Assembly: GCA_002011735.1 (NCBI GenBank)
Contig: MTOQ01000013.1
Coordinates: 1-56,553 of the forward strand
Length of the DNA: 56,553 nucleotides
From: Nitrospirae bacterium JdFR-81
GTDB lineage: Bacteria > Nitrospirota > Thermodesulfovibrionia > UBA6902
Direction of reading: 5' to 3'
Shown here: positions 8,547 to 21,904 of the stretch, piece by piece
Layout: each line of letters starts with the position of its first letter
Position numbering within the stretch: the first letter of the stretch is position 1
Notes under the pieces: generated by a model
What the model was told of the DNA's origin: nothing
Seen by the model: the letters and a program-made list of their open reading frames with translations, nothing else
Databases searched by the model: none
Program-made: the position numbers and the translations under genes

Positions 8547-9500
8547 ATGAAGAAGACGATACTGACGATGTTATTGCTTGTCCTCCCCTTCACAAACGCC
8601 CAATCCTTTGATGGCCCCCTGCAGGTGAGAAATCAACTCCCCATATTCCTCCATGCTGACCAGCCCTATATCGAGAAGGCAGGGGTCGAGGACTCGCTCT
8701 CATTGAGCCTCTCCCACTCAAGCACATATATAGTGCAGGCCTCACAGGACTGGGTAATCAACCTGGACATGGAGACAACAGAACTCAACATGAGGCTTAA
8801 AAAGGTCGTTAACGGGATGGAGTTAAACATTGATGTGCCGTTATTAATCCTCAGCGATGGATTCATGGACGGCTTTCTTGATCTCTATCACAGCACATTC
8901 GGTTTTAACGACTATGGAAGACCGAACAGGCCATTAAACAGCTTTCTCTATGAGATAAAAAGGGAGGGGATAAGGATCATAAAGGGAGAAGAGGGGATCG
9001 GGCTCGGAGACATAAGGGTTGGAGTCAAGAGGTTATTATATTCAGGTGATGGATTAAACATAGGGGTCAGGGGCGGTGTGGAGCTTCCTACAGGAGATGC
9101 CGACAAGGGGTTTGGTAACGGAGGGCTTGATACAGACATCGCCTTACTGATAGACAAGGCAATATCAGGGAGGATCATGACCTACATTAATATCGGCGCC
9201 GTGCATACAGGCGACCTCAGGACATCAGAAAGGCTGACCCTCAGAGATTTCCTCTATGCCGGCATTGCCGTTGAGGGGATGGTAAACAGGAGACTGGGCC
9301 TCCTTGTCCAGCTCGAAGGACACCCCTCAATCTATCCCGAAACAGGCCTTGAGGCCGTTGATACATGTGCATGCCTTCTTGCATTCGGCGGCAGGTATTA
9401 CAGGGCAGAGGATACCATCGAGTTTTCGATCACAGAGGATATAAGTGCAGGCTCAGCGCCTGACTTTATTATTAACATCACATACAAAAAGGAGATTTAA
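8547..9500 (+). CDS. Putative outer-membrane beta-barrel protein (DUF3187-like)
   Basis: Signal peptide MKKTIL..., GPLQVRNQLP, GFMDGFLDLYH, GLGDI..ELPTGD, SAPDF near the C-terminus; start reassigned to 8547. Confidence 0.65.
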   Translation: MKKTILTMLLLVLPFTNAQSFDGPLQVRNQLPIFLHADQPYIEKAGVEDSLSLSLSHSSTYIVQASQDWVINLDMETTELNMRLKKVVNGMELNIDVPLLILSDGFMDGFLDLYHSTFGFNDYGRPNRPLNSFLYEIKREGIRIIKGEEGIGLGDIRVGVKRLLYSGDGLNIGVRGGVELPTGDADKGFGNGGLDTDIALLIDKAISGRIMTYINIGAVHTGDLRTSERLTLRDFLYAGIAVEGMVNRRLGLLVQLEGHPSIYPETGLEAVDTCACLLAFGGRYYRAEDTIEFSITEDISAGSAPDFIINITYKKEI

Positions 9501-9501
9501 G

Positions 9502-9864
9502 ATGCAACATGAAAGACTCATTCATGACTGGATGGTCTCACACCTCAAACATCGTCTATCAAGAGATTACAGGGATATCAGGGTCAACCACGGAGGAGAA
9601 CAGAAGAACGAGTTTAAGGGGCACTATCCTGACCTCATCCTCGGCAACCATGGGCTCGTCCTTGCAGTCATGGAGGTCGAGACAGAGGAGAGTATAACCC
9701 CTCAAAAGGCCGAGGAATGGAAGGAGCTCTCAGGCCTTGGTGTCAAACTGATCCTCATGGTCCCAAAGCCTTCAAGGGCAAAGACCCTTGACCTCCTCTG
9801 GAAGGCAGGGATAGCAGACAGGGTATCTGTGGGCACATATGAGATAAATATAAATATGCCGTGA
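9502..9864 (+). CDS. Hypothetical protein, possible PD-(D/E)xK-like fold
   Basis: AAGGAG SD before ATG 9502; YPDLIL...MEVET pattern. Confidence 0.6.
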   Translation: MQHERLIHDWMVSHLKHRLSRDYRDIRVNHGGEQKNEFKGHYPDLILGNHGLVLAVMEVETEESITPQKAEEWKELSGLGVKLILMVPKPSRAKTLDLLWKAGIADRVSVGTYEININMP

Positions 9865-10062: not shown

Positions 10063-10103
10063 ACTGCCACACTGGTGGCAGTGAGGGTATAATATAATAC
10101 CCT
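10063..10103 (+). promoter_or_regulatory. Candidate WYL-regulator operator and -10 region
   Basis: Dyad ACTGCCAC-N4-GTGGCAGT (10063-10082), then AGGGTAT-N6-ATACCCT (10084-10103) enclosing TATAATATAAT, 20 nt upstream of the WYL gene. Confidence 0.6.
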
Positions 10104-10122
10104 AAAAGGGTGGTATGGGATA

Positions 10123-11046
10123 ATGTCATACAAGTTTGACTCCCTCATGATAATCCTCAACAAGCTTGAGAACAAAGAGAAGGTCACTGTCAGATCCCTC
10201 ATGGAGGAGCTTGAAGTCAGTGAGAGGACTGTTCATCGGTATCTCAATACCCTCCAGATCGGCGGATTCCCCATCAAATATGACAGGAAAAGAGAGACCT
10301 ACTGTTTTGAAGAAGGCTATACCCTGAGCAAACCCGACCTTACCCTTGAGGAGAGCCTTGCCTTTGCCCTCTCGAAGAAACTGATGAAGAGCCTTGGCCC
10401 AGGTTTTGAGAAACGACTCTCAGACATAGAGAAGAAACTCTCCATGAAGGATGCAAAACTCCAGGAGCAGTTTTTATTGAAAGGGCCTGAACAGCCAGAG
10501 GCAATAAAAGGCATGATTGAAGAGATAACCGGTGCAATCAAAAACTTCAGGGTGATAGAACTCACCTATAAAAGTGCCTATTCTGACAGAGAATCTGTGA
10601 GAAAGGTCGAACCATACTATCTTTTCTTCGACAATGACATATGGTATCTGAGAGGATATTGCCATTTAAGAAAAGAGCTCCGGACCTTTGCCCTCGACAG
10701 GGTGATATCCGTAAGGCCACTGAACAAACATTTTGTACCCGAGAAGATATCACCTGATGAAGACATCTCAGGGGCCTTTGGCCCTGTGGTAGGTGGCAAA
10801 CCGGTAGAAGTAATCCTAAGATTTGATGCCCCTATCAAACCCTTTGTCAGCAGAAAGAAGTGGCATCGTAGCCAGAAGTTAAAGGAATTAGAGGACGGGG
10901 GAGTTGAGATGAGATTCAGGGTCAATGGCTTAGCAGGTATAAAGCCATGGATTTATCAATGGTTACCCCATGTTAAAGTGATAGCCCCTGAGGAGCTAAA
11001 GAGGATAATGAGGGCAGAACTCAAAAGAGCCATTAAAAACATATAA
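10123..11046 (+). CDS. wHTH-WYL-WCX transcriptional regulator
   Basis: HTH (LEVSERTVHRYL), RKVEPY, WYLRGYC, LRTFALDRV, C-terminal VKVIAPEEL. Confidence 0.92.
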   Translation: MSYKFDSLMIILNKLENKEKVTVRSLMEELEVSERTVHRYLNTLQIGGFPIKYDRKRETYCFEEGYTLSKPDLTLEESLAFALSKKLMKSLGPGFEKRLSDIEKKLSMKDAKLQEQFLLKGPEQPEAIKGMIEEITGAIKNFRVIELTYKSAYSDRESVRKVEPYYLFFDNDIWYLRGYCHLRKELRTFALDRVISVRPLNKHFVPEKISPDEDISGAFGPVVGGKPVEVILRFDAPIKPFVSRKKWHRSQKLKELEDGGVEMRFRVNGLAGIKPWIYQWLPHVKVIAPEELKRIMRAELKRAIKNI

Positions 11047-11065
11047 CCCTTAAAAAGGAGGACTT

Positions 11066-12289
11066 ATGGGAGAGAGACTAAAGTGTCCGGTCTGTGGAAA
11101 ACCACTGACACGTGCAGAGTATGACAGGGCCCTGGGCCTCTGGAAGGAAAAACAGGAGCATATAAAACACCTTGAGGCAGAGCAGAAGAAACTCAGGGAG
11201 AACCAGAAGAGGCTTGAAGAAGAGAGAAAGAGGCTCAAGGCACAGGAGAAGGCGTATAAACAGCAGGTAAAGAAACTGACCGACGAATTTCAAAGGCAGA
11301 AGACCCAGCTCATAAAAGAGAGGGACAGGCTCTTACAGGAGCAGAGAAAGAAATTTACAGAGGAGATGCATAAGCAGAGGGCCAGGATGGAAAAATCCTT
11401 TGAACTCCGCATGAAGAAAGAGATCCAGAAAGGCATTGCCCGTGGCATAGAAGAGCAGAAGAAACAGATCAAGAAGCAGGAAGAAGAGCTCAGGAAGGCA
11501 AAGAACAGGATGCAACAGCTTGAGAGGAGCCTGCGCATCTCTGCCAGAAAGTATGAGCAGGCCAATGAGGAGATCAAGAGACTGAGGAAACAGCTTGAAC
11601 AGGGCATTACCCCACAGATAGAGGGACTGCTTGAAGAAGACAATCTCCTCTCAAAACTCAAGGAACTATATCCTGAAGACAGGTTTGAGCATCCAGGCAA
11701 GAAAGGTGATATAATTCAGATCGTTATAGATCAGGGCAGGGAGGTTGGCAAAATAGTTTATGAATGTAAGAAGGTGAAGACATTCAACAGCAGACATATC
11801 GATCAGGCCAGAGAGGCACGCAATAAACGACAGGCCGATTTTGCCATTCTTGTAACAAACGCCTTTCCATCGAAGAGACAGTTCTACTTTGTTGAAAAGA
11901 CGGTGTTTGTAATCAGTCCCATAAGCCTTGAGCCCATAACCTATATCCTCAGGGCCAGCCTGGTGAGGATAGCCCTGTTGAAGATGAGCAATGAGGCAAA
12001 GGAGAAGGCAGTCCAGAGGGTCTATGAGTATCTCTCAAGCAGTGAGTATAATAACAAAGTGAATGATATTGCTAACCAGCTTTTTGAACTCGGCAAAGAA
12101 CTCCGTTCTGAGATATCTGCTCACAAACGCACCTGGGAGAAGAGATACAACATATACCGTTGTCTATTTAATGACATAAGATTGATAGACCACAAGCTGA
12201 AGGAACTCGTCCACGACAGCACCAACAACAAACAAAAACTCCTGCCACTGAGAAAGGAATATATCGAGATTACGGAATTGGGAGGGTGA
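11066..12289 (+). CDS. DUF2130-like coiled-coil protein with PD-(D/E)xK domain
   Basis: N-terminal CPVCG, ~160 aa E/K/Q/R coiled coil, QIEG..E..L..LYPED, GDIIQ..V...GKIVYECKK, ADFAILVT. Confidence 0.75.
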   Translation: MGERLKCPVCGKPLTRAEYDRALGLWKEKQEHIKHLEAEQKKLRENQKRLEEERKRLKAQEKAYKQQVKKLTDEFQRQKTQLIKERDRLLQEQRKKFTEEMHKQRARMEKSFELRMKKEIQKGIARGIEEQKKQIKKQEEELRKAKNRMQQLERSLRISARKYEQANEEIKRLRKQLEQGITPQIEGLLEEDNLLSKLKELYPEDRFEHPGKKGDIIQIVIDQGREVGKIVYECKKVKTFNSRHIDQAREARNKRQADFAILVTNAFPSKRQFYFVEKTVFVISPISLEPITYILRASLVRIALLKMSNEAKEKAVQRVYEYLSSSEYNNKVNDIANQLFELGKELRSEISAHKRTWEKRYNIYRCLFNDIRLIDHKLKELVHDSTNNKQKLLPLRKEYIEITELGG

Positions 12290-12329
12290 GGGAAAAAGTA
12301 GATATATAATATTCGCAAAAGGAGGTATT

Positions 12330-13181
12330 ATGGGTAATACAATAGAAAAATTTTTGTCTGCCTTGAATAAAAAGGATGGCAATTTTCGGAAAAGTGCAGG
12401 TAACTATGCTAATAGAGTCCACATACATCATAACCCGAAGAAAGACATTAAAATCCCACAGAAAAAAGATCCAAGCAAAACAAAGAATTGTGACATTGTT
12501 TTTGCTCATTTATATGAAAATCCACGAACTAAAGAATTATTCTGGCTCAAGAAAGCGGCTAATTCACAACATGTTCATGGACATAAGTGTATTTCTTATA
12601 TTTTTCATAATCTATTATCTTCCCCTCCAGTAAAAATCAAACGTGATTTGGCAAAGAAAATATTAGATTCGGAACTTCCTAAGATCGTCGATTACCTAAA
12701 TAAAATAGAAAAGGATAATATAACTTTAGAAGATTTGGATTATAACCATGAAGAAATAGAGCAAGTGTCTACATATCTTATCGAACGTCAAATTAGGAAT
12801 GTTGGAGGAGGATACCGGAACCACGAAGATAATCGTAAGGTAGAAAAAGCAGCTATTAAATTCGTTATAAGACATTACAAACAACAGGGGTGGAATGTCC
12901 AGTCTGTGGAATTTGAGAAAAGAGGATACGATTTACTCTGCACAAAAGGAACAAGAGAGGAGCATGTTGAAGTAAAAGGTATCAAAGGTACAGAGTTATC
13001 ATTTATTGTTACATCTCGTGAAGTTGAACAGGCTCATATAGACCCCCACTCGGTATTCTGCGTGGTGACCTCTGCCTTATCAAAGAGACCAAAATTATCA
13101 CGTTTTACTGGTAAAGAATTTATTAATTCCTTCAAGTTAAATCCGTTAGCATTCAAAGCTATATTTAGTTTGAAAAAATAA
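12330..13181 (+). CDS. DUF3883 (NOV_C-like) PD-(D/E)xK domain protein with unknown N-terminal domain
   Basis: VEKAAI.FV...Y.QQGW.V...GYDLLC...HVEVKG...TSRE; strong SD; AT-rich DNA. Confidence 0.8.
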   Translation: MGNTIEKFLSALNKKDGNFRKSAGNYANRVHIHHNPKKDIKIPQKKDPSKTKNCDIVFAHLYENPRTKELFWLKKAANSQHVHGHKCISYIFHNLLSSPPVKIKRDLAKKILDSELPKIVDYLNKIEKDNITLEDLDYNHEEIEQVSTYLIERQIRNVGGGYRNHEDNRKVEKAAIKFVIRHYKQQGWNVQSVEFEKRGYDLLCTKGTREEHVEVKGIKGTELSFIVTSREVEQAHIDPHSVFCVVTSALSKRPKLSRFTGKEFINSFKLNPLAFKAIFSLKK

Positions 13182-13214
13182 GATACAAATCGACATGAGG
13201 AAGGAGAGGAATAA

Positions 13215-14597
13215 ATGGAAAATTTGAGAAATACGGTGAGGCGATTAACAGAAGAAGAGAAAAAACAAGCCATTGCCGCTGCCAAGAGAGAAAAAGCTAA
13301 GGGGTCGCGTAGTCAAGGAACATCTAACATCCCAGTAGAAGTAGAATATAAGGGGAAAATATATGTTGGAACAGGGAAAGAAGTATTTCGAATACTAAAA
13401 AAAGATAGTGGAGTAAAGTCGTCAACTCTTACGGCTCTTGTAAAAAAGATTGGTGCTAAGTGGCTATTTAATCCATTGGCTGAAGAAGGCGAAATAAGTA
13501 ATATACGTACAGAAACAGAAAAACATCTTAAGGAGACAAAGATACAATCAGATTCAGAAGGTGTTTATAAACTACTTGAAAAGAAAAAACAGATCATTCT
13601 CTATGGGCCACCTGGGACGGGGAAGACATATAGTACAAAGGAGATTGCCCTTGAGCTGTTTACTGAAGAAGAGGAAGAGTACGAAGAATTGCGTGACAAA
13701 GGCAGAATCGAATTCATCACCTTTCATCCCTCCTATAGCTATGAAGAATTCATAGAAGGCATCACTGTCGAGACAGAAAGAGAGGGAGTTGCTACCGAAA
13801 GTGTCAAGTATAAACTCAGACCTGGGATTTTTAAAGAGATGTGCAAGAAAGCCTTAGGATCTCTTATTAATTTACCAGATGAGGAAATTGAGGAGAAGAC
13901 ATGGCGTGAAGTTTTTGATGCCTATATAGAGAAAGAAGTTGTGGATTTTGAAGATGCACCTCCATATGTCCTTATCATAGACGAGATCAACAGGGGTGAT
14001 ATGGCAAAGATATTTGGAGAGCTCATAACCCTGCTTGAGGCTGACAAACGCCTTGGAGAAGATAATGAATTAATTGCCACTCTGCCCACATCTGGCGACA
14101 GATTCGGCGTTCCACCAAATCTCTACATCATCGGCACAATGAACACAGCAGACAGAAGCATCGCCCTCCTGGATGTGGCATTGAGAAGGAGATTTGGTTT
14201 TATCGCCATGGAACCAGACCTTGAGATGTTAAGAAGTCATATAGAGAATACTACGGATATAGAAGAGAACACGAAATCTCTCCTTACTCACTCAATTAAG
14301 GCCATTGAAAAGATAAACCAAAAGATATGCCATGACAGGGCCATAGGCAGGGACAAACAGATAGGCCATTCCTATTTATTGAAAGTTAAAAATACAGAAG
14401 ATCTGGCCATGGTCTGGCGACATGAGATACTGCCCCTCCTTGAAGAGTACTGCTACGGAGACTATCAGAAGATCAACCAGATACTCTTTAATAGTGATTC
14501 AGACACTGAGTGGATAAGTCAATGTGAAGGGATTAAAGATATCACAGCCAATAACATCAGAGACATGCTCAATGAGATAATTTCTGATGGTGAATAA
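13215..14597 (+). CDS. mcrB: McrB-family AAA+ GTPase
   Basis: GPPGTGKT, FHPSYSYEEFIEG, IIDEINRG, signature MNTADRS, ALRRRF, IGHSY. Confidence 0.93.
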   Translation: MENLRNTVRRLTEEEKKQAIAAAKREKAKGSRSQGTSNIPVEVEYKGKIYVGTGKEVFRILKKDSGVKSSTLTALVKKIGAKWLFNPLAEEGEISNIRTETEKHLKETKIQSDSEGVYKLLEKKKQIILYGPPGTGKTYSTKEIALELFTEEEEEYEELRDKGRIEFITFHPSYSYEEFIEGITVETEREGVATESVKYKLRPGIFKEMCKKALGSLINLPDEEIEEKTWREVFDAYIEKEVVDFEDAPPYVLIIDEINRGDMAKIFGELITLLEADKRLGEDNELIATLPTSGDRFGVPPNLYIIGTMNTADRSIALLDVALRRRFGFIAMEPDLEMLRSHIENTTDIEENTKSLLTHSIKAIEKINQKICHDRAIGRDKQIGHSYLLKVKNTEDLAMVWRHEILPLLEEYCYGDYQKINQILFNSDSDTEWISQCEGIKDITANNIRDMLNEIISDGE

Positions 14598-15873
14598 TAG
14601 CAGTATCATAGAAGTCCCAGAATACAAATCAATAAAGATAGAACCTCTAAGTGATAGAGAGATTGAGTATCTCAGGCAGGACTGCTTTAACTACAGGGAG
14701 GAAGGAAAGTCACCTTATAAAGTAAGGCGTTTGAAAGAGAAAGACGAGATTGAAAACACCTCCTACTCTGGTATCATCCAGCTTGATAACTTCAGGATTC
14801 ATTTCTCCACAAAGGTCAGCACAAACCTGTTCTACATGCTCACCTTTCTTAAAGACGAAAAAGCGTTCCTCTATGATTCAGAAAGGATTATTGAGATAAA
14901 AGAAGGCGAATGCTTCTTCGACATCATTGGCAGGCTCTTTCTGAACGAACTGGAAAAGATCTTTGAGAGAGGCTTCTATAAGAGATATGTCAGAAAAGAA
15001 GAAAATCTTGCCTTCCTTAAAGGCAAGCTATTGATTAAACATCAGATAAGAAACGATTTCACCAGAAGGCCAGAGTTTTACTGCTCATATGAAGACCTGA
15101 CATACGACAACCTCGAGAATCGCATAATCCTGCGTGCCGCAACCCTCCTGATTCCACTTATCCGTTTTAATGAAGAGATAAAGGGTGACCTCCTTAAATA
15201 TACCCATCTCCTCAGAGAAGAAGTCAGCCTCATTGATGTGAATCCCGAAGACTGCAATCGGATAAGGTTTCACAGGCTCAATGACTACTATGAAGCCATA
15301 ATCCAGCTCTCAAAGGTTATTCTTCAGTATCACTTCATCAGGCATACACAGAAGGGACTCTCCAAGGGGTTCAATTTTATTGTAAACATGAACAGAGTAT
15401 ACGAGGACTTTATCACCTCTGTTATCGAAGACATCGTCTCAACTGATGAGGAATTTCAGGACTTCGTGGTGGAGAAACAGGCAAGATTTGACAGTCTTGT
15501 AAGAGAGAGAACGATTATCACAAGACCCGACATAATCCTCCGCAGGAAGAACACCGAAGAGTATCCTGTTATTATTGACGCCAAGTACAAGAGGGAGGAG
15601 GACAACACAGACTATTATCAGGTGATAGCCTATGCTATGGCAATACCTACAGCAAAGGTATGTTGCTTAATTTATCCAGCAGAAGAAGAAAGGATTGAGA
15701 CAAGGATTTTAACTCTTAAAAGAAAGGCCTTTGACAGCGCAAGAGAAGATGTAAGATTACATGCAATCAAGATCAATTTATTCTGGGAAGAAAAGACGGG
15801 ATTTAAAGATTATATAACGAAGGTAAAGAGAGAATTAAAAGGCGAATTATTAAATGTAGTAGAATTCCATTAA
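14587..15873 (+). CDS. mcrB-partner mcrC: McrC-family endonuclease subunit
   Basis: MNRVYEDFI, RPDIIL, IIDAKYK, DYYQVIAYA, LIYP; overlaps the mcrB stop. Confidence 0.9.
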   Translation: MVNNSSIIEVPEYKSIKIEPLSDREIEYLRQDCFNYREEGKSPYKVRRLKEKDEIENTSYSGIIQLDNFRIHFSTKVSTNLFYMLTFLKDEKAFLYDSERIIEIKEGECFFDIIGRLFLNELEKIFERGFYKRYVRKEENLAFLKGKLLIKHQIRNDFTRRPEFYCSYEDLTYDNLENRIILRAATLLIPLIRFNEEIKGDLLKYTHLLREEVSLIDVNPEDCNRIRFHRLNDYYEAIIQLSKVILQYHFIRHTQKGLSKGFNFIVNMNRVYEDFITSVIEDIVSTDEEFQDFVVEKQARFDSLVRERTIITRPDIILRRKNTEEYPVIIDAKYKREEDNTDYYQVIAYAMAIPTAKVCCLIYPAEEERIETRILTLKRKAFDSAREDVRLHAIKINLFWEEKTGFKDYITKVKRELKGELLNVVEFH

Positions 15874-15897
15874 GCTCAAGGCCCATCGAAGAGGACG

Positions 15898-17496
15898 ATG
15901 GTAAGATTAACCTTTTATGGAGGCATAAGAGAAATAGGAGGGAATCAGATCCTTCTTGAGGATGGAGACAGGTCTGTATTTTTTGACTTTGGACTATCAT
16001 TCAAGAGATACAAAAAATTTTATGAAGAATACCTTAAACCTCGCGCTGGTTCAGGCTTGCTTGATCCTTTAATTATGGGATTACTCCCTCCGCTAAAAGG
16101 GATCTACAGAGATGACCTGCAAAATTCCGAGATCTGGAAGCACTTCCATGCCAGCCCTTTTGTCTGAAAATTAAAAAAGTTAGACGGAGTTCTTTTAAGT
16201 CACGCCCACCTTGACCACTCAGGTTATATCTCTTTCCTTAAAAAAGAGATTCCCATCTGTTCAAGCTCAATGACTGCTTTTATTGTGAAGGCAGTTCAAG
16301 ACAGTGGAAGACCTGATTTTGATAGACGTATCTGCTATTTTACTCCATGCGAGACCGGTATACCTGCAGGGTGGAGACAAGAGGCATTTCTGTCAGACTC
16401 ATCCAGTCCTGATGAACAACGCCTTTTTCTCCTGGGAGATATCTCGCCGCGCAAACTGCCCAAGAAAGCGGTAGAATTTTGGGCAAACCCAGCAAAAACA
16501 AAAGAGCTTATCTCGTGTTCCCCTGGAAATTGTAAAGAATTTGTTTTTAACTTAAAATGTTTTGCTGTTGATCATTCGATACCAGGGGCAACAGCATGGG
16601 CAGTGGAAACCAACGCTGGATGGATAATTTACACTGGTGACCTTCGTCTACATGGGAAGAAGAAGGAATTCACACAGAAGTTTCTGAAGAATGCCGCAAG
16701 ACTTAAGCCCAAGGTGCTCATAATAGAAGGCACCAGGGTAGATGATGAAAGAAAGATTAACGAAGAAGAGGTTAAGGGTAATCTCCTTAAAGTTGTAAAG
16801 AGGTTCAAGGGGAAACTGGTTATAGCTGACTTTGGCGCAAGAAATATAGAGCGGTTAGAAACATTTCTCGAAATCGCAGAGGAAGTCGGGAGAAAGCTTG
16901 TTATAACGGATAAAGATGCCTACCTGCTCGATGCGCTCCATGTATTGGATCCAGCTATTCCTGATGCAACCAATAAGCATATATATGTCTATCAGAAGAC
17001 AACCGCAAATAAAAGTCCTGATATATGGAAGAGAAACATTTATGCTAAGTATAGCAATAAGATCGTGATGGCAGAAGATATTCGCAGAAATCAAGAAGAT
17101 TTTATTTTGTGCTTCAGTTTTTTCGATATAAACGAATTGCCAAGTCTTAAACCCGAGCCAGAGAGTGCATATATTTATTCTTCAAGTGAACTTTACGATG
17201 AAGAGCAGGAAATAGATTTCCGGCGACTTCATGCCTGGCTTGAACATTTCCAGATTAAAGGAATAGGATTGCCAAGGGAAATAGCTTACCGGAAATGGGA
17301 GATTCCAGAGGATGAAAAAGCACTTCATGCCTCAGGACATGCCGCCGGCCCTGAGTTAATAGAGATGGTCTGCTTGATTAAACCACAATATGTCCTCCCG
17401 GTACACACCGAAAGACCTGAATATTTCAGGGAACACCTCCGCGATACAGATATCAAGGTAAGAATAGCTGAACCAGGTGAGTGTATAAATATCTAA
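15898..17496 (+). pseudogene. MBL-fold beta-CASP RNase J-like nuclease interrupted by one in-frame TGA (16165-16167)
   Basis: ORFs 15898-16167 and 16270-17496 share a frame. Reading through the TGA gives KLKKLDGVLLSHAHLDHSG. Other motifs: GGIREIGGN, DFG, VDHSIPG, YTGDLRLHG, IIEGT, HASGH, PVHTE. Confidence 0.8.
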
Positions 17497-17533
17497 CCAA
17501 AAAACTTGCACTTGCGAAGTGCAGGTTTTTTGG
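17497..17533. terminator. Intrinsic, likely bidirectional terminator
   Basis: CCAAAAAA-CTTGCACTT-gcg-AAGTGCAGG-TTTTTTGG immediately after the stop at 17496. Confidence 0.85.
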
Positions 17534-17575
17534 TGGGATCCACTTTGCGCAGTCTACACGGGGACTACTTTACAT

Positions 17576-17722
17576 GGTGCGATAAATAGGACAGAATATG
17601 AGGATGACTCATTTGTCTATGTTGTTAATTGTTAATAAGTTAATAAGGATGAGTGCGTCAGATGTGGCCTCTGTGTAGGTGTCTGCCCCTGCGGGATATG
17701 GGAGATGGTGGAGAATGTGTAA
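17576..17722 (+). pseudogene. 3' remnant of a 4Fe-4S oxidoreductase gene
   Basis: Frame reads GAINRTEYEDDSFVYVVNC**VNKDECVRCGLCVGVCPCGIWEMVENV*, containing a CxxCxxCxxxCP motif, two internal TAA stops and no start. Confidence 0.65.
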
Positions 17723-17782
17723 GGAGAATACCTCGTAGTTTGCTCCCTCCTATAAATAGGCATGATCAAGCCAATCTTAAAC

Positions 17783-17842
17783 TGTAGGATGATGCACATC
17801 AGGTGAGTGATTTCACTCACAGGATGTGTGAAATAACACATC
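17783..17842. promoter_or_regulatory. Three phased dyad sites, candidate bacterial enhancer (UAS)
   Basis: TGT-N10-ACA at 17783, TGA-N10-TCA at 17804 (GTGAGTGA-tt-TCACTCAC), TGT-N10-ACA at 17825 (GATGTGT-N6-ACACATC); 21-bp period. Confidence 0.6.
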
Positions 17843-17891
17843 TCAACTATAAGAGATAACATAAAAATGGATATATTATAGGCAGCAAAAA

Positions 17892-17907
17892 TGGTATGAA
17901 TTTTGCT
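17892..17907 (+). promoter_or_regulatory. Sigma54 (-24/-12) promoter
   Basis: TGGTATGAATTTTGCT matches TGGCAC-N5-TTGCW with exact GG-N10-GC spacing; upstream of the pilin gene. Confidence 0.65.
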
Positions 17908-18211
17908 AAAGTCAAGAGGGAGGTGTTTTATTTATTTATTGACATTAAATGGAATTAATATTCATGGTGTCTTAATTAACACGATTAGAATTTCCTTCAA
18001 TTAATTGAAGGATTGAGGATGTTGAGCTCAATCAGCGCCCTCGATTCAGCAAGCCGTCTTCGAAGGTTCTCTTGCCTATCCAGGGTATTCTTGATAAGGG
18101 GTGTCCCTCTCAAAGTGCCACTCATTTTTAAAGGGGGGTGGGACCCATGATCTAATTACATAAAGGCCTTAATTCATGGAGGCTATTATTTTTGGTGGAA
18201 GGAGGTAAAGG

Positions 18212-18718
18212 ATGATGGAGAGGGTGATAACGATATTGACATTACTGATCACATTTATTGCGGTTTCAGGTGTTGTTTATGCAGGCTCAGTGAATGGCAC
18301 ACTTGATGTTACAGCGAATGTCATCGGATTTTGTGATGTGATGGTCACTGGCGTGGACTTTGGGAATGTAGTGGCGGATGGCTCCCTCTATTATGCCAAT
18401 GGGGATGTATCTGTGGCATGTGACACAGGGGTACCTTATAACATTGCTATGGATGCAGGTATGTATTTTGATGGGATCAGCAGGCAGCTGAGCGACGGTT
18501 TTAGTGGTTTCCTGCATTACCACCTCTTTAAGGATGGGACTTACACTCAGGAGTATGGTGATTCCGACTATGATAATACCTTCCCATTGGGATCCAGTCT
18601 TTCAGATATAGGTGATGGGACATGGCAGGCACACACGGTCTATGGCCAACTGGTAACTCTGGGCGGAGAGCCCGTGGGTAGTTACGCTGATACCGTTACG
18701 GTAACCGTCTACTATTAA
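18212..18718 (+). CDS. Csu-type (spore coat protein U domain) pilin
   Basis: Signal peptide, V.A.V..C..V.FG, second Cys, L.Y.LFKD, VYG, GSYADTVTVTVYY C-terminus; strong SD. Confidence 0.9.
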   Translation: MMERVITILTLLITFIAVSGVVYAGSVNGTLDVTANVIGFCDVMVTGVDFGNVVADGSLYYANGDVSVACDTGVPYNIAMDAGMYFDGISRQLSDGFSGFLHYHLFKDGTYTQEYGDSDYDNTFPLGSSLSDIGDGTWQAHTVYGQLVTLGGEPVGSYADTVTVTVYY

Positions 18719-18732
18719 AAAATAAAAATTAG

Positions 18733-18759
18733 ATGGGGCTTCCACATTGGAAGCCCCAT
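18733..18759. other. GC-rich intergenic hairpin after the pilin gene
   Basis: ATGGGGCTTCCA-cat-TGGAAGCCCCAT, perfect 12-bp stem, no U-tract on the + strand. Confidence 0.7.
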
Positions 18760-18764
18760 GATGA

Positions 18765-19562
18765 ATGGAGTGGGGGATGAGACAACCTCACTTTTTTATC
18801 CTTCTTATTTTTCTTCTATCCCTTCCTGTAAATGTAGATGGAAGTTCACTCAAGATATCCCCCCTGAAAGTATCGCTCGGTGAAGGCAGACGATCCGCTG
18901 TATTGAGCCTTACGAATACAGGAGAGGAGGCGATAACCCTCCAGGTTTCTGCCAAGAGGTGGCTTCAGGACGAGACGGGCAAGGATATATACAGCGATAC
19001 TGAGGATATTATATTCTTCCCCAGGATATTCCAGATAGAGAAGGGTAAAACGAGAATCATAAGGGTGGGTTACCAAGGGGCAGTAGATGTGCAGGTGGAG
19101 AAGGCATACAGACTGTTTATTGAAGAATTGCCTGTAACAGCTCCCCGGGGGGAGATACTGAGGTTTGTCTTGAGATTCGCTGTGCCTGTTTTTATAACAC
19201 CTTCCAGAGAGGTCAGGAGACCGATTATTGAGAAGGTAGGCCTTGCTCATGGTAGTGTTAGAGTGAAGATAGGGAATGCGGGTAACACACACCTGCTCAT
19301 GAGAAAGCTCGTTATAACCGGCGTTGGGGCATCTGGGAGGGAGGTCTTTTCAAGGGAGACGGCAGGATGGTATATCCTTGAAGGCTCATCAAGGGCTTTT
19401 ATTGTGAATATCACGGAACAGGAGTGTCTGGAGGCAGATGTAATCAAGATAAAGGCCACGGGTGAGCACCTGAATCTTGAGGCCAAGCTGGACCTTAAGC
19501 CAGAGTACTGCAAAGCGTCTGAGAGGAAGGGACGGGCTCATACAGGAAGAAAGGCAGGATGA
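18765..19562 (+). CDS. Fimbrial chaperone (PapD/CsuC-like)
   Basis: ISPLKV, L.NTG, IIFFP.IF, IIRVG, EKAYRLFIEELP, RFAVPVF, NAGNTH. Confidence 0.88.
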   Translation: MEWGMRQPHFFILLIFLLSLPVNVDGSSLKISPLKVSLGEGRRSAVLSLTNTGEEAITLQVSAKRWLQDETGKDIYSDTEDIIFFPRIFQIEKGKTRIIRVGYQGAVDVQVEKAYRLFIEELPVTAPRGEILRFVLRFAVPVFITPSREVRRPIIEKVGLAHGSVRVKIGNAGNTHLLMRKLVITGVGASGREVFSRETAGWYILEGSSRAFIVNITEQECLEADVIKIKATGEHLNLEAKLDLKPEYCKASERKGRAHTGRKAG

Positions 19563-21904
19563 CCGTAGAAGGCCGTTCTTGGAAACCACACCTTATAAGT
19601 CTTGCCTTATTAAATCTGCTCCTTCTTTCCTCATCATTGTATGCAACCAATAGAGTAGTAATGAAGGTCTATCTGAACACCGTAGAGATGGGAGAATATA
19701 TCTTCATCCTCGGGCCTGAGGATACCGTGTTTTTCCCTATGAGGGATCTGCTTGATATGGGTTTCGACAGGCCACCCGAAGATGCGGAAGTAGAGATAGA
19801 AGGAGAGAGGTATATTTTATTAAACAAGATCCAGGGCGTAGGGGTTGAGATAGATAAGGAGAGGGTGATACTCCATATCACCGCTGAACCTCATCTCCTC
19901 AAAAAGCATTTGTTCGATCTCTCATTCAAGGGACCGAAGGATGTCTTATATGTAAGAAATGATTCCGCGTTTCTAAATTATTACCTTGATTATCTAACGG
20001 GTGATGTAGATTTTGGATCGTTGTCCCTTTCTCTTGAGACCGGGGTGAATATAGGGGGTTATTTCGGTCATTCCAATTTTTCTTATCTGAATTCGAATAG
20101 TGAGGATAGATTTGTAAGATTGATGACGAGCATAACAAAGGATGACCCTGTGACACTCCGAAGGTACGTACTTGGTGACTCCTTTGCTACCTCAGGGCTG
20201 TATCTCAGTGGAGGATTAATCCTTGGGGGAGTGGGTATCTCGAAGAACTATAAGATAAATCCTTATTTTATAAAGGTGCCAAGTCTCACCCTCTCGGGTG
20301 CTGTCCAGACACCATCAGACATTGAAATCTATGTGGATGATTACCTCATAAGAAGAGAGAGAGTGCCTCCAGGAGAGTTTGAGTTCTTAAACCTTATAGA
20401 GAGGCCGGGTGCGGGCATATCCACCATATTGATAAAGGATGCATATGGACGTGTGAAAAAGGTGGATACCCCGTTTTATATCTCTTCCTCCCTCCTCAGG
20501 CCAGGCGTCCAGGAGTACAGTTACACCCTGGGATTCAAGAGGGAGGATTTTGGCAAAGAGAGTTTCAGATACACCGAACCCTTGTTGATAGGTTTTCATC
20601 GACTTGGGCTTACTGATACCCTAACGGTAGGAGCCGGGATAGAAGGTGGCAGGGAAGGATTTAATCTTTCACCCTCGATCACCTTTCTCCTCGGACTGGC
20701 AGGAGAGATGCATATCTCTGGTGCAATAAGTAACCATAATGGTCAAATTGGCTATGGAGCATTATTGGGTTATAGTTATACCAGCAGAAAGAAGAGTCTG
20801 AGGATTTCCGTCCGTGGCTTCAGCAGAGGATACTCAAATGTCTCTCTCCTTCCTTCGCAGGACAAGCCCTGGTTTGAGGGTAATATAAACTCTGGATATA
20901 ACCTTGGAAGGCTTGGAACCATCTCGGTAGGGTTTTCAATGGGAGATTATTATGCCTCTACAGAGGTAAAAAGATTCTCGATAAACTATACAAAGAGACT
21001 CAGAAAAGACCTCTCCTTTCATCTCAGGTTCACCAGGACAGAAACAGATGAGGTGGTTAATAAGGTCTTTATAGGGCTGAGAATCTCTCTGGGAGGGCAT
21101 CATTCAGGGGAGGCAAAATACACATCGGACGGGGAAGTCTCAGAGCAGACCCTGTTGATCTACAAGGATCCACCGTTCAAGAAAGGCATAGGATACAGGC
21201 TGAATATTGAAAGGGTAGCCTCTGAGACAGAAAATGGAGAGGTGAATGGTGATGTTCTCATACACTACCGTTTTCCTGCGGCCATCAGCAGAATTAATTA
21301 CAGGCATATCTCCGGAGAGGATGTCTATAATCTTGGCGTAACAGGAGGGATAGTGTTTATAAAGGACTCCCTGTTTTTAACGCGCCCTATTACAGACAGT
21401 TTTGTACTTGTCAGGGTGGATGGACTCGAAGGGGTAAGGGTATATTATAGCAACAAGGAGGTAGGTCGGACGAACAGAAAAGGGGATCTCATTGTGCCAT
21501 ACATCCTCTCATACCATCCCAATAACATCTCCATTGAGCCTGAAGATATACCTGTGCAATATGAATTAAAAGCAGTGAAGAAGTATGTTACAACCCCCTA
21601 TAGGGGTGGTGGTATCATGGAATTTGAGACAAGAGCGCTTCAAGGTTTTATAGGCCACCTCTTTATGCTTCAGAAAGGCAGAAAGGAGCCTGCTGAATAT
21701 GGAAGACTCGAGATTAAGGCAGAAGACAGCGTTATCAAAACAGTGACAGGTAAGGGTGGAGAGTTTTATCTTGAGAACCTCCCACCAGGGAAATTCCCTG
21801 CGAGGCTCTTCCTTAAGGATATGGAATGTGATTTTGAGTTAACCATACCACACAGCAACAAGGTGATTGTGAATATTGGAGAGGTGATATGTCATATGAA
21901 TTAG
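19559..21904 (+). CDS. Fimbrial outer-membrane usher (CsuD-like)
   Basis: RFVRLMTS, LGDSF, PSDIEIYVD, DAYGR, LLRPG, SFVLV, G.T..KG.L.VP, C-terminal Cys pair. Confidence 0.9.
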   Translation: MTVEGRSWKPHLISLALLNLLLLSSSLYATNRVVMKVYLNTVEMGEYIFILGPEDTVFFPMRDLLDMGFDRPPEDAEVEIEGERYILLNKIQGVGVEIDKERVILHITAEPHLLKKHLFDLSFKGPKDVLYVRNDSAFLNYYLDYLTGDVDFGSLSLSLETGVNIGGYFGHSNFSYLNSNSEDRFVRLMTSITKDDPVTLRRYVLGDSFATSGLYLSGGLILGGVGISKNYKINPYFIKVPSLTLSGAVQTPSDIEIYVDDYLIRRERVPPGEFEFLNLIERPGAGISTILIKDAYGRVKKVDTPFYISSSLLRPGVQEYSYTLGFKREDFGKESFRYTEPLLIGFHRLGLTDTLTVGAGIEGGREGFNLSPSITFLLGLAGEMHISGAISNHNGQIGYGALLGYSYTSRKKSLRISVRGFSRGYSNVSLLPSQDKPWFEGNINSGYNLGRLGTISVGFSMGDYYASTEVKRFSINYTKRLRKDLSFHLRFTRTETDEVVNKVFIGLRISLGGHHSGEAKYTSDGEVSEQTLLIYKDPPFKKGIGYRLNIERVASETENGEVNGDVLIHYRFPAAISRINYRHISGEDVYNLGVTGGIVFIKDSLFLTRPITDSFVLVRVDGLEGVRVYYSNKEVGRTNRKGDLIVPYILSYHPNNISIEPEDIPVQYELKAVKKYVTTPYRGGGIMEFETRALQGFIGHLFMLQKGRKEPAEYGRLEIKAEDSVIKTVTGKGGEFYLENLPPGKFPARLFLKDMECDFELTIPHSNKVIVNIGEVICHMN

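Follow-up and report, generated by a model that had tools for sequence, protein, structure and literature searches.

A WYL-headed row of nuclease genes in a Nitrospirota genome is probably a mosaic defence island and not a single six-component system

When a regulator gene and several nuclease genes lie in one tightly spaced row between a single promoter and a single terminator, do they form one dedicated system, or can such a row be assembled as a patchwork? The question is raised by a locus at positions 10063-17533 of contig MTOQ01000013.1 of Nitrospirae bacterium JdFR-81 (assembly GCA_002011735.1), the whole 56,553 nucleotides (nt) of which are called the window below. Here six co-oriented open reading frames (ORFs) on the + strand, with gaps of 19, 40, 33, -11 and 24 nt between them, code in this order for a winged helix-turn-helix (wHTH)-WYL-WCX regulator, a DUF2130 protein, a DUF3883 protein, McrB, McrC and an RNase J-like beta-CASP protein, as seen in Pfam and NCBIfam scans. 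An initial annotation of this DNA had already described a co-oriented set with gaps below about 45 nt, given all six domain assignments, with which both scans agree, and recognized the defence-island character of the gene set; these points stand. It had also gone further in taking the set for one undescribed, inducible system, and on this point our analysis leads elsewhere: the locus is probably a mosaic defence island under what is likely to be one WYL-gated promoter. It is best read as three modules, namely the WYL regulator with a solo DUF2130 nuclease, an McrBC of the NxxD type with a DUF3883 partner, and a dead passenger RNase J-like gene. Three lines of evidence lead us to the view that the six genes are not one system: the independent travel of their homologues in neighborhood surveys, a step in codon-position composition within the row, and the broken state of the RNase gene.

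The neighborhoods of the close DUF2130 subfamily were surveyed in 80 metagenome loci (40-68% identity), 49 of which extend at least 1 kb upstream and 54 at least 1 kb downstream. In none of these 80 is a WYL gene adjacent (a WYL-like gene lies more than 3 kb away in three), and in none does McrBC adjoin the DUF2130 gene; when the 112 ORFs of 90 or more amino acids (aa) that immediately flank DUF2130 were run against Pfam, a WYL or McrBC domain was likewise detected in 0. Clustering of up to four neighbors on each side gave no partner that reaches beyond 6 of 78 DUF2130 loci. The beta-CASP family was surveyed in 80 reference-genome loci, mostly from Chloroflexota and 65 of them with at least 2 kb upstream, and homologues of McrB, McrC, WYL and DUF3883 occur in 0 of the 80. 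As for the regulator, 12 further loci of its close homologues (37-60% identity) all lack homologues of the other five genes. The WYL genes at these loci are followed by other cargo: a DUF2779 gene in four, a NERD-UvrD-like helicase in two and a Phd/PIN pair in one, with an oppositely oriented HD gene in another and unrecognized, mutually unrelated proteins elsewhere. The complete six-gene set was not met again at any locus examined in these surveys. Among the outcomes that the initial annotation had listed as refuting its view was that the homologues never co-occur, the set being a chance hotspot of defence genes headed by WYL; this is largely what the surveys show, with a single recurrence of WYL together with the McrBC cassette.

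That single recurrence is instructive in its gene order. A close relative of the window McrC is present in 1 of 401 genomes of the phylum, G330 (63% identity; the next best reaches 28%), where the locus L220 runs glnD, a WYL gene (55% identical to that of the window), a 235-aa protein with a lipoprotein-type signal, which takes the place of DUF2130, a 230-aa protein, McrB and McrC. Residues 93-230 of the 230-aa protein are 53% identical to residues 2-137 of the window DUF3883 protein, and no nuclease domain accompanies them; McrB is 65% identical over its AAA+ part (window residues 117-458) with a different and longer N-terminus, and in McrC the nuclease signature RPD315...D331-A-K333 is conserved. 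From this gene order it follows that WYL, a domain of about 135 aa, McrB and McrC recur in the same sequence while DUF2130 and beta-CASP do not. The 135-aa domain, encoded at 12333-12740 in the window, is fused to a DUF3883 nuclease there and to a different N-terminal piece in G330. Beyond its McrBC genes, at 14173-19613, L220 continues with a second WYL gene (27-28% identical), a HIRAN gene, Cas6, Cas_CXXC_CXXC and further CRISPR-Cas genes; this stretch has the appearance of a CRISPR-Cas locus associated with WYL and situated in the same island.

The composition of the row changes along its length. The initial annotation had called the operon AT-richer than its flanking core genes; this holds for the four distal genes, with a GC content of 0.34-0.42, but not for the WYL and DUF2130 genes at 0.45-0.46 (window mean 0.485). 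At third codon positions (GC3) the values are 0.53 for WYL and 0.58 for DUF2130, resembling the 0.55-0.57 of the flanking core genes, and then 0.28 for DUF3883, 0.39 for McrB, 0.48 for McrC and 0.38 for beta-CASP. As the DNA of G330 has about 37% GC throughout, this drop in GC3 gives the distal cassette the composition of a low-GC donor such as G330.

The last gene, at 15898-17496 on the + strand, is a pseudogene as encoded. It matches RMMBL in Pfam (1.5e-8) and the RNase J family in NCBIfam (2.2e-25), albeit with 89.1 bits against the cut-off of 400 of TIGR00649, which is not reached; its layout of metallo-beta-lactamase (MBL), beta-CASP and RMMBL domains carries an HxHxDH motif at residues 102-107, and a profile search with it finds solved RNase J chains at 1e-11 to 1e-21. 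The in-frame TGA mentioned in the initial annotation lies at 16165-16167 and is codon 90; nothing else disrupts the frame, a sign that the nonsense change, plausibly from CGA to TGA, is recent, and 11 of 11 aligned homologues have Arg in this column. The longest ORF after the stop begins only at residue 125, beyond the HxHxDH motif, and for this reason its product could not be catalytic; with the gene broken and no ORF past the stop that includes the motif, the RNase arm earlier assigned to the system falls away. Recoding of the TGA, as selenocysteine or otherwise, was considered and set aside given the Arg of the homologues and the normal reading of the other window ORFs under table 11. The TGA is unchanged in contigs of two public sequencing runs, both of which are possible sources of the window and hence do not confirm it independently. 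The encoded protein is one of a clade, about 535 aa in length, for which over 3,500 matches exist, the best of them 53-60% identical and those with a named source from Chloroflexota or Dehalococcoidia; in 200 further genomes from the class no member of the protein family was found above 30% identity, and in the 49 genomes of the same taxonomic family, none at all. This absence, together with the Chloroflexota-type relatives, marks the gene as foreign in this genome.

The regulator gene (10123-11046, + strand; 307 aa) combines in a single chain an N-terminal wHTH (HTH_11, PF08279, 37.8 bits, 1.8e-9), a central WYL (PF13280, 71.1 bits, 7.9e-20) and a C-terminal WCX domain (PF25583, 58.1 bits, 1.1e-15), all above the Pfam cut-offs, and matches the PADLOC WYL model at 2.6e-42. 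Its nearest solved relatives are PafBC (5.2e-16) and DriD-type proteins (about 2e-9; 2.4e-9), followed by BrxR (6.1e-5) and CapW (2.8e-4). The family is large, with 12,673 representatives at E <=0.001 and 99 at 1e-30, and 65 of the 401 genomes of the phylum have a match at 1e-25. Within the 12 loci of close homologues, the DUF2779 proteins are about 494 aa long with an RNase H-like domain, and their gene directly adjoins the WYL gene in two of the four cases (L273 and L279, as distinct from L270 and L271); the NERD plus UvrD-like helicase (L277 and L278) has 560 aa; its gene is the first one co-oriented with WYL on the downstream side, at a distance of about 700 to 1,000 nt. These arrangements may represent further WYL-gated nuclease modules. 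Judged from such comparisons, regulators of this clade act as a self-regulated promoter head that is portable and takes on exchangeable cargo, mostly nucleases.

Self-regulation is predicted from the DNA in front of the gene. The palindromic operator proposed in the initial annotation is present as a perfect, fully complementary repeat of 8+8 nt, ACTGCCAC-N4-GTGGCAGT, at 10063-10082, in the position of the -35 element, and is the sole exact match to CTGCCAC-N4-GTGGCAG in the window. It overlaps the best promoter-like site of a promoter scan, a sigma-70-like CTGCCA-18-TATAAT at 10064-10093 on the + strand, the -10 box of which (TATAAT, 10088-10093) lies inside a second palindrome, AGGGTATAAT/ATAATACCCT, found at 10084-10103 in an inverted-repeat search. 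When the upstream regions of seven orthologous WYL genes of the same class (49-60% protein identity) were aligned, the form ACTGnCA-N6-TGnCAGT proved to be kept in 6 of the 7, about 5 nt upstream of a -10-like box. Such retention at the same place indicates that the motif is not a product of chance, and autoregulation is the natural prediction from a perfect palindrome in the gene's own promoter that orthologous promoters conserve. Hence, the claim of a WYL-controlled operon is well supported by these alignments for at least the promoter-proximal genes; what does not follow is that it unites six genes as one system. In its own 2.05 Mb genome the motif ACTGNCA-N6-TGNCAGT has one perfect site, the WYL promoter, and 4 sites with one mismatch compared to 6 for the reversed control; with a sole perfect site and one-mismatch sites not above control, the visible regulon of the regulator is its own promoter. 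A second operator ahead of the McrBC cassette was sought and rejected: a CTGCCAC half-site lies at about 12244, but no inverted repeat was found at 12230-12335, and a single 7-mer, being expected by chance, carries no weight.

The DUF2130 gene (11066-12289, + strand; 407 aa) encodes a member of PF09903 with 86.9 bits against a cut-off of 26.7 (1.7e-24). In the AlphaFold2 (AF2) model, with a mean pLDDT (predicted local distance difference test) of 77.5, an N-terminal zinc-ribbon-like beta hairpin with a CPVC motif is followed by a helix of about 150 residues (26-178), a PD-(D/E)xK core and a C-terminal helical hairpin. Residues 184-305 match PD-(D/E)xK folds with Z 8.2-10.3, including TIP26, the McrC nuclease domain (6hz4_M) and the Can2 nuclease domains, and the catalytic residues D215, E233 and K235 are invariant in 16 sequences. 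The window protein belongs to a distinct subfamily (57-75% identity) with named members in Ignavibacteria, Bacteroidota, Planctomycetota, Acidobacteriota and Anaerolineae; this subfamily spans many phyla and is nearly always solitary within restriction or abortive-infection islands. Many of the domains that flank it are of defence or mobile-element type: BsoBI, AAA_15/OLD-TOPRIM, AAA_13, HNH and HEPN_Swt1, and further SauUSI-like PLD-helicase-DUF3427, an N6/N4 methylase, integrases and Nmad3. More distantly, a homologue at 25-30% identity occurs in 69 of the 401 genomes of the phylum, and 1 of 29 such loci fetched, that of G318, has a WYL/WCX gene directly upstream; there the WYL/WCX-DUF2130 pair forms a two-gene insert between a pyruvate-kinase-like gene and mutS on one side and folP and ftsH on the other. 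From these neighborhoods, the best description of DUF2130 is that of a defence-island gene which stands alone and now and then comes to lie behind a WYL regulator. Scans of viral contigs with DUF2130 and McrC alignments found no relatives.

A 2012 survey of PD-(D/E)xK proteins listed the function of DUF2130 as unknown, and searches of published full text turned up no functional account of it; other literature matches concern, going by their titles, vesicle proteomics, marine DUFs and Anabaena surface proteins. Several further arrangements were seen on the way. A distant branch (about 40% identity) lies between a DnaJ-domain protein of about 700 aa and an AAA_13 ATPase of 820-880 aa in L186, L187, L188 and, in part, L198; this could be a three-gene unit, with L186 and L187 perhaps from the same organism. 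DUF6339 proteins are encoded directly upstream of DUF2130 in three loci (L170, L171 and L176), and HEPN_Swt1-like proteins in two (L160 and L165).

The third gene (12330-13181, + strand) codes for a two-domain protein of 283 aa: an N-terminal part of about residues 1-140 without a recognized fold or family, and a PD-(D/E)xK nuclease domain at about 165-283, within which Pfam detects NOV_C/DUF3883 (5.2e-13, residues 171-254). The nuclease domain has the catalytic residues D201, E214 and K216 and matches Hjc, I-Ssp6803I and NhoI at Z 9.3-10.1. Its N-terminal half has no Pfam match and neither a DUF3427 nor a PUA reader domain, and the AF2 model of it is of moderate confidence (block pLDDT 52-80). 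Foldseek and VIA-align searches with the whole protein returned rows filled by the nuclease domain and did not name the N-terminal fold. Identities with YjbR, TfoX_N, DUF3024 or DUF5655 were rejected on an Atlas structure comparison, the template modeling (TM) scores of 0.41-0.45 being below the bar. Among 5.8 billion proteins searched, the full architecture was not found elsewhere: nearly all of the 94 matches cover the nuclease domain only (40-63% of the query) and differ in their N-termini. A tblastn search of plasmids similarly gave 14 records through the nuclease domain only, none with at least 80% coverage, the best being a solitary gene on a Tolypothrix plasmid.

McrB (13215-14597, + strand; 460 aa) is an AAA+ GTPase by Pfam (AAA_5, 8e-15), NCBIfam (McrB PRK11331, 3.7e-43, with 147.9 bits and so below the 637-bit equivalog cut-off) and its motifs, all intact: Walker A GPPGTGKT, Walker B DEINR in the context LIIDEINRGD, and the NxxD signature as NTAD (MNTADRS). 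Its N-terminal region (1-116) matches no Pfam family and gave no usable Atlas match, the best TM score being 0.39. The start of the McrC gene (14587-15873, + strand; 428 aa) overlaps the mcrB end by 11 nt; its product matches the McrBC family PF10117 with 172 bits (1.8e-50) and retains D315, D331 and K333. Thus, the three PD-(D/E)xK cores of the gene set, those of the DUF2130 protein, the DUF3883 protein and McrC, are all intact; the initial annotation had counted three such domains. Plasmid hits to McrC in tblastn are at most 31% identical, mostly from haloarchaeal plasmids, and too distant for use. Prediction of a complex of the McrB AAA+ part, McrC and the 145-aa N-terminal domain gave no verdict at a score of 0.00 without controls. 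We would float, as a tentative suggestion that is more doubtful than probable, that the DUF2130 subfamily may be an uncatalogued single-gene anti-phage nuclease, placed by some genomes under a WYL sensor, and that the domain of about 135 aa upstream of McrB may be a third, dissociable subunit of an McrBC variant in which McrB itself has no classical reader domain.

The row is closed, as the initial annotation had it, by a terminator-like hairpin with a T-run, the core of which lies at 17510-17526; with its flanking A and T runs it occupies 17503-17531 in the terminator scan and repeat search, and its extended arms measure 23 nt. The hairpin CTGCACTT-N3-AAGTGCAG has 9 copies at up to 2 mismatches in its own genome, on contigs C2, C6, C10, C17, C18, C70 and C94, compared to 0 for the reversed control. 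As a member of a genome-repeated hairpin family, the terminator is a host element and no part of an imported operon. The same hairpin also appears as contigs of 31-33 nt in both sequencing runs, at 2-3 times the local depth.

To the left, the synteny with eight relatives extends over an APS-kinase-like gene, DUF3187 and a 139-aa ORF and stops at 9864; from there rightwards nothing is shared. The island starts within a variable region, and synteny defines its left border alone. The 139-aa ORF (9445-9864) has no Pfam family, overlaps the end of DUF3187 by 56 nt and is found beside it at 55-70% identity in 8 of 8 relatives. On the right, a short + strand frame at about 17640-17725 resembles a ferredoxin tail of the 4Fe-4S type (C-x2-C-x2-C-x3-CP) but is not part of a proper gene, and may be the remnant of a native gene at the edge of the island; directly right of the island, 18212-21904 holds a cluster of an SCPU (spore-coat-protein-U) pilin, a PapD-like chaperone and an usher that is not syntenic in the eight relatives.

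How do the alternatives fare? That the six genes are one undescribed inducible system layering DNA restriction, a coiled-coil nuclease and an RNase arm would account for gaps of 40 nt or less, for a uniform orientation between one operator and one terminator, and for the fact that all six products are nucleic-acid enzymes; further, no model of PADLOC-DB v2.0.0 names such a set. In that database the DUF2130 protein reaches 2e-7 at best, through weak coiled-coil matches to LmuB, ZorA and JetC, the DUF3883 protein has only weak tails of TmtA and HmaA, and beta-CASP no match; a PHROGs search gave just a WYL-like family with no known function and noise from coiled coils. Several observations do pull against a mosaic. 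Tight spacing, a single promoter, a single terminator and no internal terminator have the look of a true operon, terminator-like sites being absent from all inter-gene gaps of the set. G330 keeps the WYL and McrBC lineages together across families of one class, so that their pairing may be functional rather than accidental. A DUF3883-domain gene stands next to DUF2130 in 2 of the 54 loci with at least 1 kb downstream, about 170 nt away and after a BsoBI restriction-modification pair (L130 and L182), and one beta-CASP locus (L055) has a DUF2130 gene directly downstream, amounting to weak recurrent contacts among the DUF2130, DUF3883 and beta-CASP families. Moreover, the neighborhood surveys do not take in the very closest relatives, namely a beta-CASP protein (P0058, 74% identity), a DUF2130 protein (P0122, 75%) and a WYL protein (P0337, 52%), and among solved proteins the regulator is nearest to activators, PafBC and DriD, and not to the repressors BrxR and CapW. 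Even so, a single six-gene system appears highly improbable to us: the set did not recur in the loci examined, its composition steps from within, its RNase gene has a nonsense codon, and G330 does with WYL and McrBC but without DUF2130 and beta-CASP. The beta-CASP family, moreover, keeps housekeeping-type company, as in L055, where it follows phosphofructokinase and pseudouridine synthase, and DUF2130 with a DUF1016 nuclease resembles an insertion beside it.

Better placed, though still well behind the mosaic with one WYL-gated promoter, is a division into two transcription units, with WYL controlling itself and DUF2130, and DUF3883-McrBC-(beta-CASP) being a later insertion with a constitutive promoter of its own. 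In its favor, GC3 falls at 12.3 kb, and a TATAAT lies at 12305-12310, 20 nt ahead of the DUF3883 start; G318 offers a bare WYL/WCX-DUF2130 pair between housekeeping genes, and close WYL homologues are often directly followed by a single nuclease-type gene, DUF2779 (L273 and L279) or the NERD-helicase (L277 and L278). In one sequencing run (X2) there is a contig break at 12197/12232, within the final 90 nt of DUF2130, with a depth of 98.6 to the left and 55.5 to the right. A mixture of strains that have the left part in common but not the right would fit this picture, a hint only and a weak one, consisting of the depths of contigs and a break where the sequence is A/C-rich. A further contig of 14.4 kb, with a depth of 94, runs up to the hairpin at 17503-17533 and then passes into unrelated sequence, a hint of coexisting strains that differ in island content. 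Against a second unit stand the 40-nt gap, which has neither a terminator-like site nor a full promoter in the promoter scan, a G318 WYL protein merely 28% identical to that of the window, and the union of WYL and McrBC orthologues in G330. We regard it as unlikely, although less so than the six-gene system, that WYL-DUF2130 responds to DNA damage or serves repair in the manner of PafBC/DriD and is not phage defence, McrBC having merely landed beside it. The kinship of the regulator with PafBC and DriD ahead of BrxR and CapW would fit, as would an operator at the -35 position, which reportedly resembles PafBC and DriD activator sites; the G318 pair adjoins mutS and an AddB-like nuclease gene, and the DUF2130 protein has Rad50/SMC/SbcC matches in NCBIfam. 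The latter, however, are weak, limited to the coiled coil and far below the cut-offs, the DUF2130 flanks are mostly restriction, OLD, HNH, HEPN and integrase genes, a defence-island or mobile context, and the subfamily is spread patchily across phyla.

Returning to the mosaic island, its workings can be sketched by analogy with the named families, from which induction, ligand and substrates are all drawn. A WYL dimer would bind the palindrome at 10063-10082; a nucleic-acid ligand arising from infection or DNA damage, most likely single-stranded DNA if CapW, BrxR, DriD and PafBC are a guide, would shift its grip and raise transcription. The transcript would cover DUF2130, with read-through reaching the McrBC cassette. 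DUF2130 might then cut DNA on its own, McrBC would restrict modified DNA as a GTP-driven enzyme of type IV, and the DUF3883 protein would be a second nuclease with an N-terminal domain as its McrBC-linked part; the RNase gene, as encoded, would contribute nothing.

The locus illustrates how nuclease genes that form a tidy operon headed by WYL can be a patchwork put together from parts and not a system, which matters for the mining of defence systems by gene adjacency. It also provides three leads: a WYL clade in which the operator travels with the regulator while the cargo (DUF2779, NERD-helicase, DUF2130 or McrBC) is swapped; an uncharacterized DUF2130 subfamily in the defence islands of many phyla, without a model in PADLOC v2.0.0; and an McrBC lineage with a conserved extra upstream domain.

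Set against known systems, the modules show both kinship and departures. With the RNase J family, the last gene shares the MBL/beta-CASP/RMMBL layout and the HxHxDH motif, but it differs in belonging to the ~535-aa clade common in Dehalococcoidia, in scoring 89 bits against 400 and in its broken frame. DUF3883 is a proven catalytic domain of modification-dependent endonucleases when joined in one chain with a DUF3427 or PUA reader (Lutz et al. 2019, PMC6765204). As described there for YenY4I and McaZI, the window protein has a C-terminal DUF3883 PD-(D/E)xK domain behind a variable N-terminal domain in a defence-island setting; unlike them, its N-terminal half has neither reader, and its architecture is unique in the protein search described above. 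The CoCoNuT systems, to which the initial annotation had likened the locus, also place an McrBC pair near a coiled-coil protein and extra nucleases. They are defined, in the account of Bell et al. (2024, PMC11090510), by an McrB GTPase with an NxD motif, a one-residue deletion in NxxD, and by fused or separate coiled coils. The window McrB has NTAD, an NxxD, and its N-terminus of 116 aa is without a long coil, none being fused to it; the DUF2130 protein, composed of zinc ribbon, coil and PD-(D/E)xK with no REC match, is not a CnuA bearing PYD, CARD-like or REC domains; and the CnuH helicase, HEPN and Hsp70-like parts are not in the window set. With the defining NxD motif not present we reject the CoCoNuT identity; the main text of that paper does not mention DUF2130, DUF3883 or beta-CASP. 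The likeness is instead to canonical McrBC of the E. coli K-12 type, which that account places on the NxxD branch, in the Walker A and B motifs, NTAD, the intact McrC core and the overlapping genes. It departs from this type in the short McrB N-terminal region, which matches no known reader domain, and in the extra upstream gene that joins an unrecognized domain to a DUF3883 nuclease, the domain alone preceding McrB in G330.

For the island as a whole there is a parallel in the BrxR-family WYL regulators. Of these, 48% co-localize with known defence systems, BREX and type IV restriction being the most represented beside them, and their islands "can be highly mosaic", as reported by Picton et al. 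(2022, PMC9122601). The window regulator has the same three-domain wHTH-WYL-WCX architecture, and its own promoter likewise contains an inverted repeat next to the -10 box, although this comprises 8+8 nt with a spacer of 4 (or 7+7 with a spacer of 6) compared to 11+11 with a spacer of 5 for BrxR in that report, and although by sequence PafBC and DriD are nearer to the regulator than BrxR or CapW. It too heads a defence island with type IV restriction, and the cargo varies among its homologues in the same way. WYL-headed mosaic islands with type IV restriction having already been published, current concepts are unchanged; the window, by virtue of sharing the arrangement set out in that report, adds a further example of a WYL-headed mosaic island.

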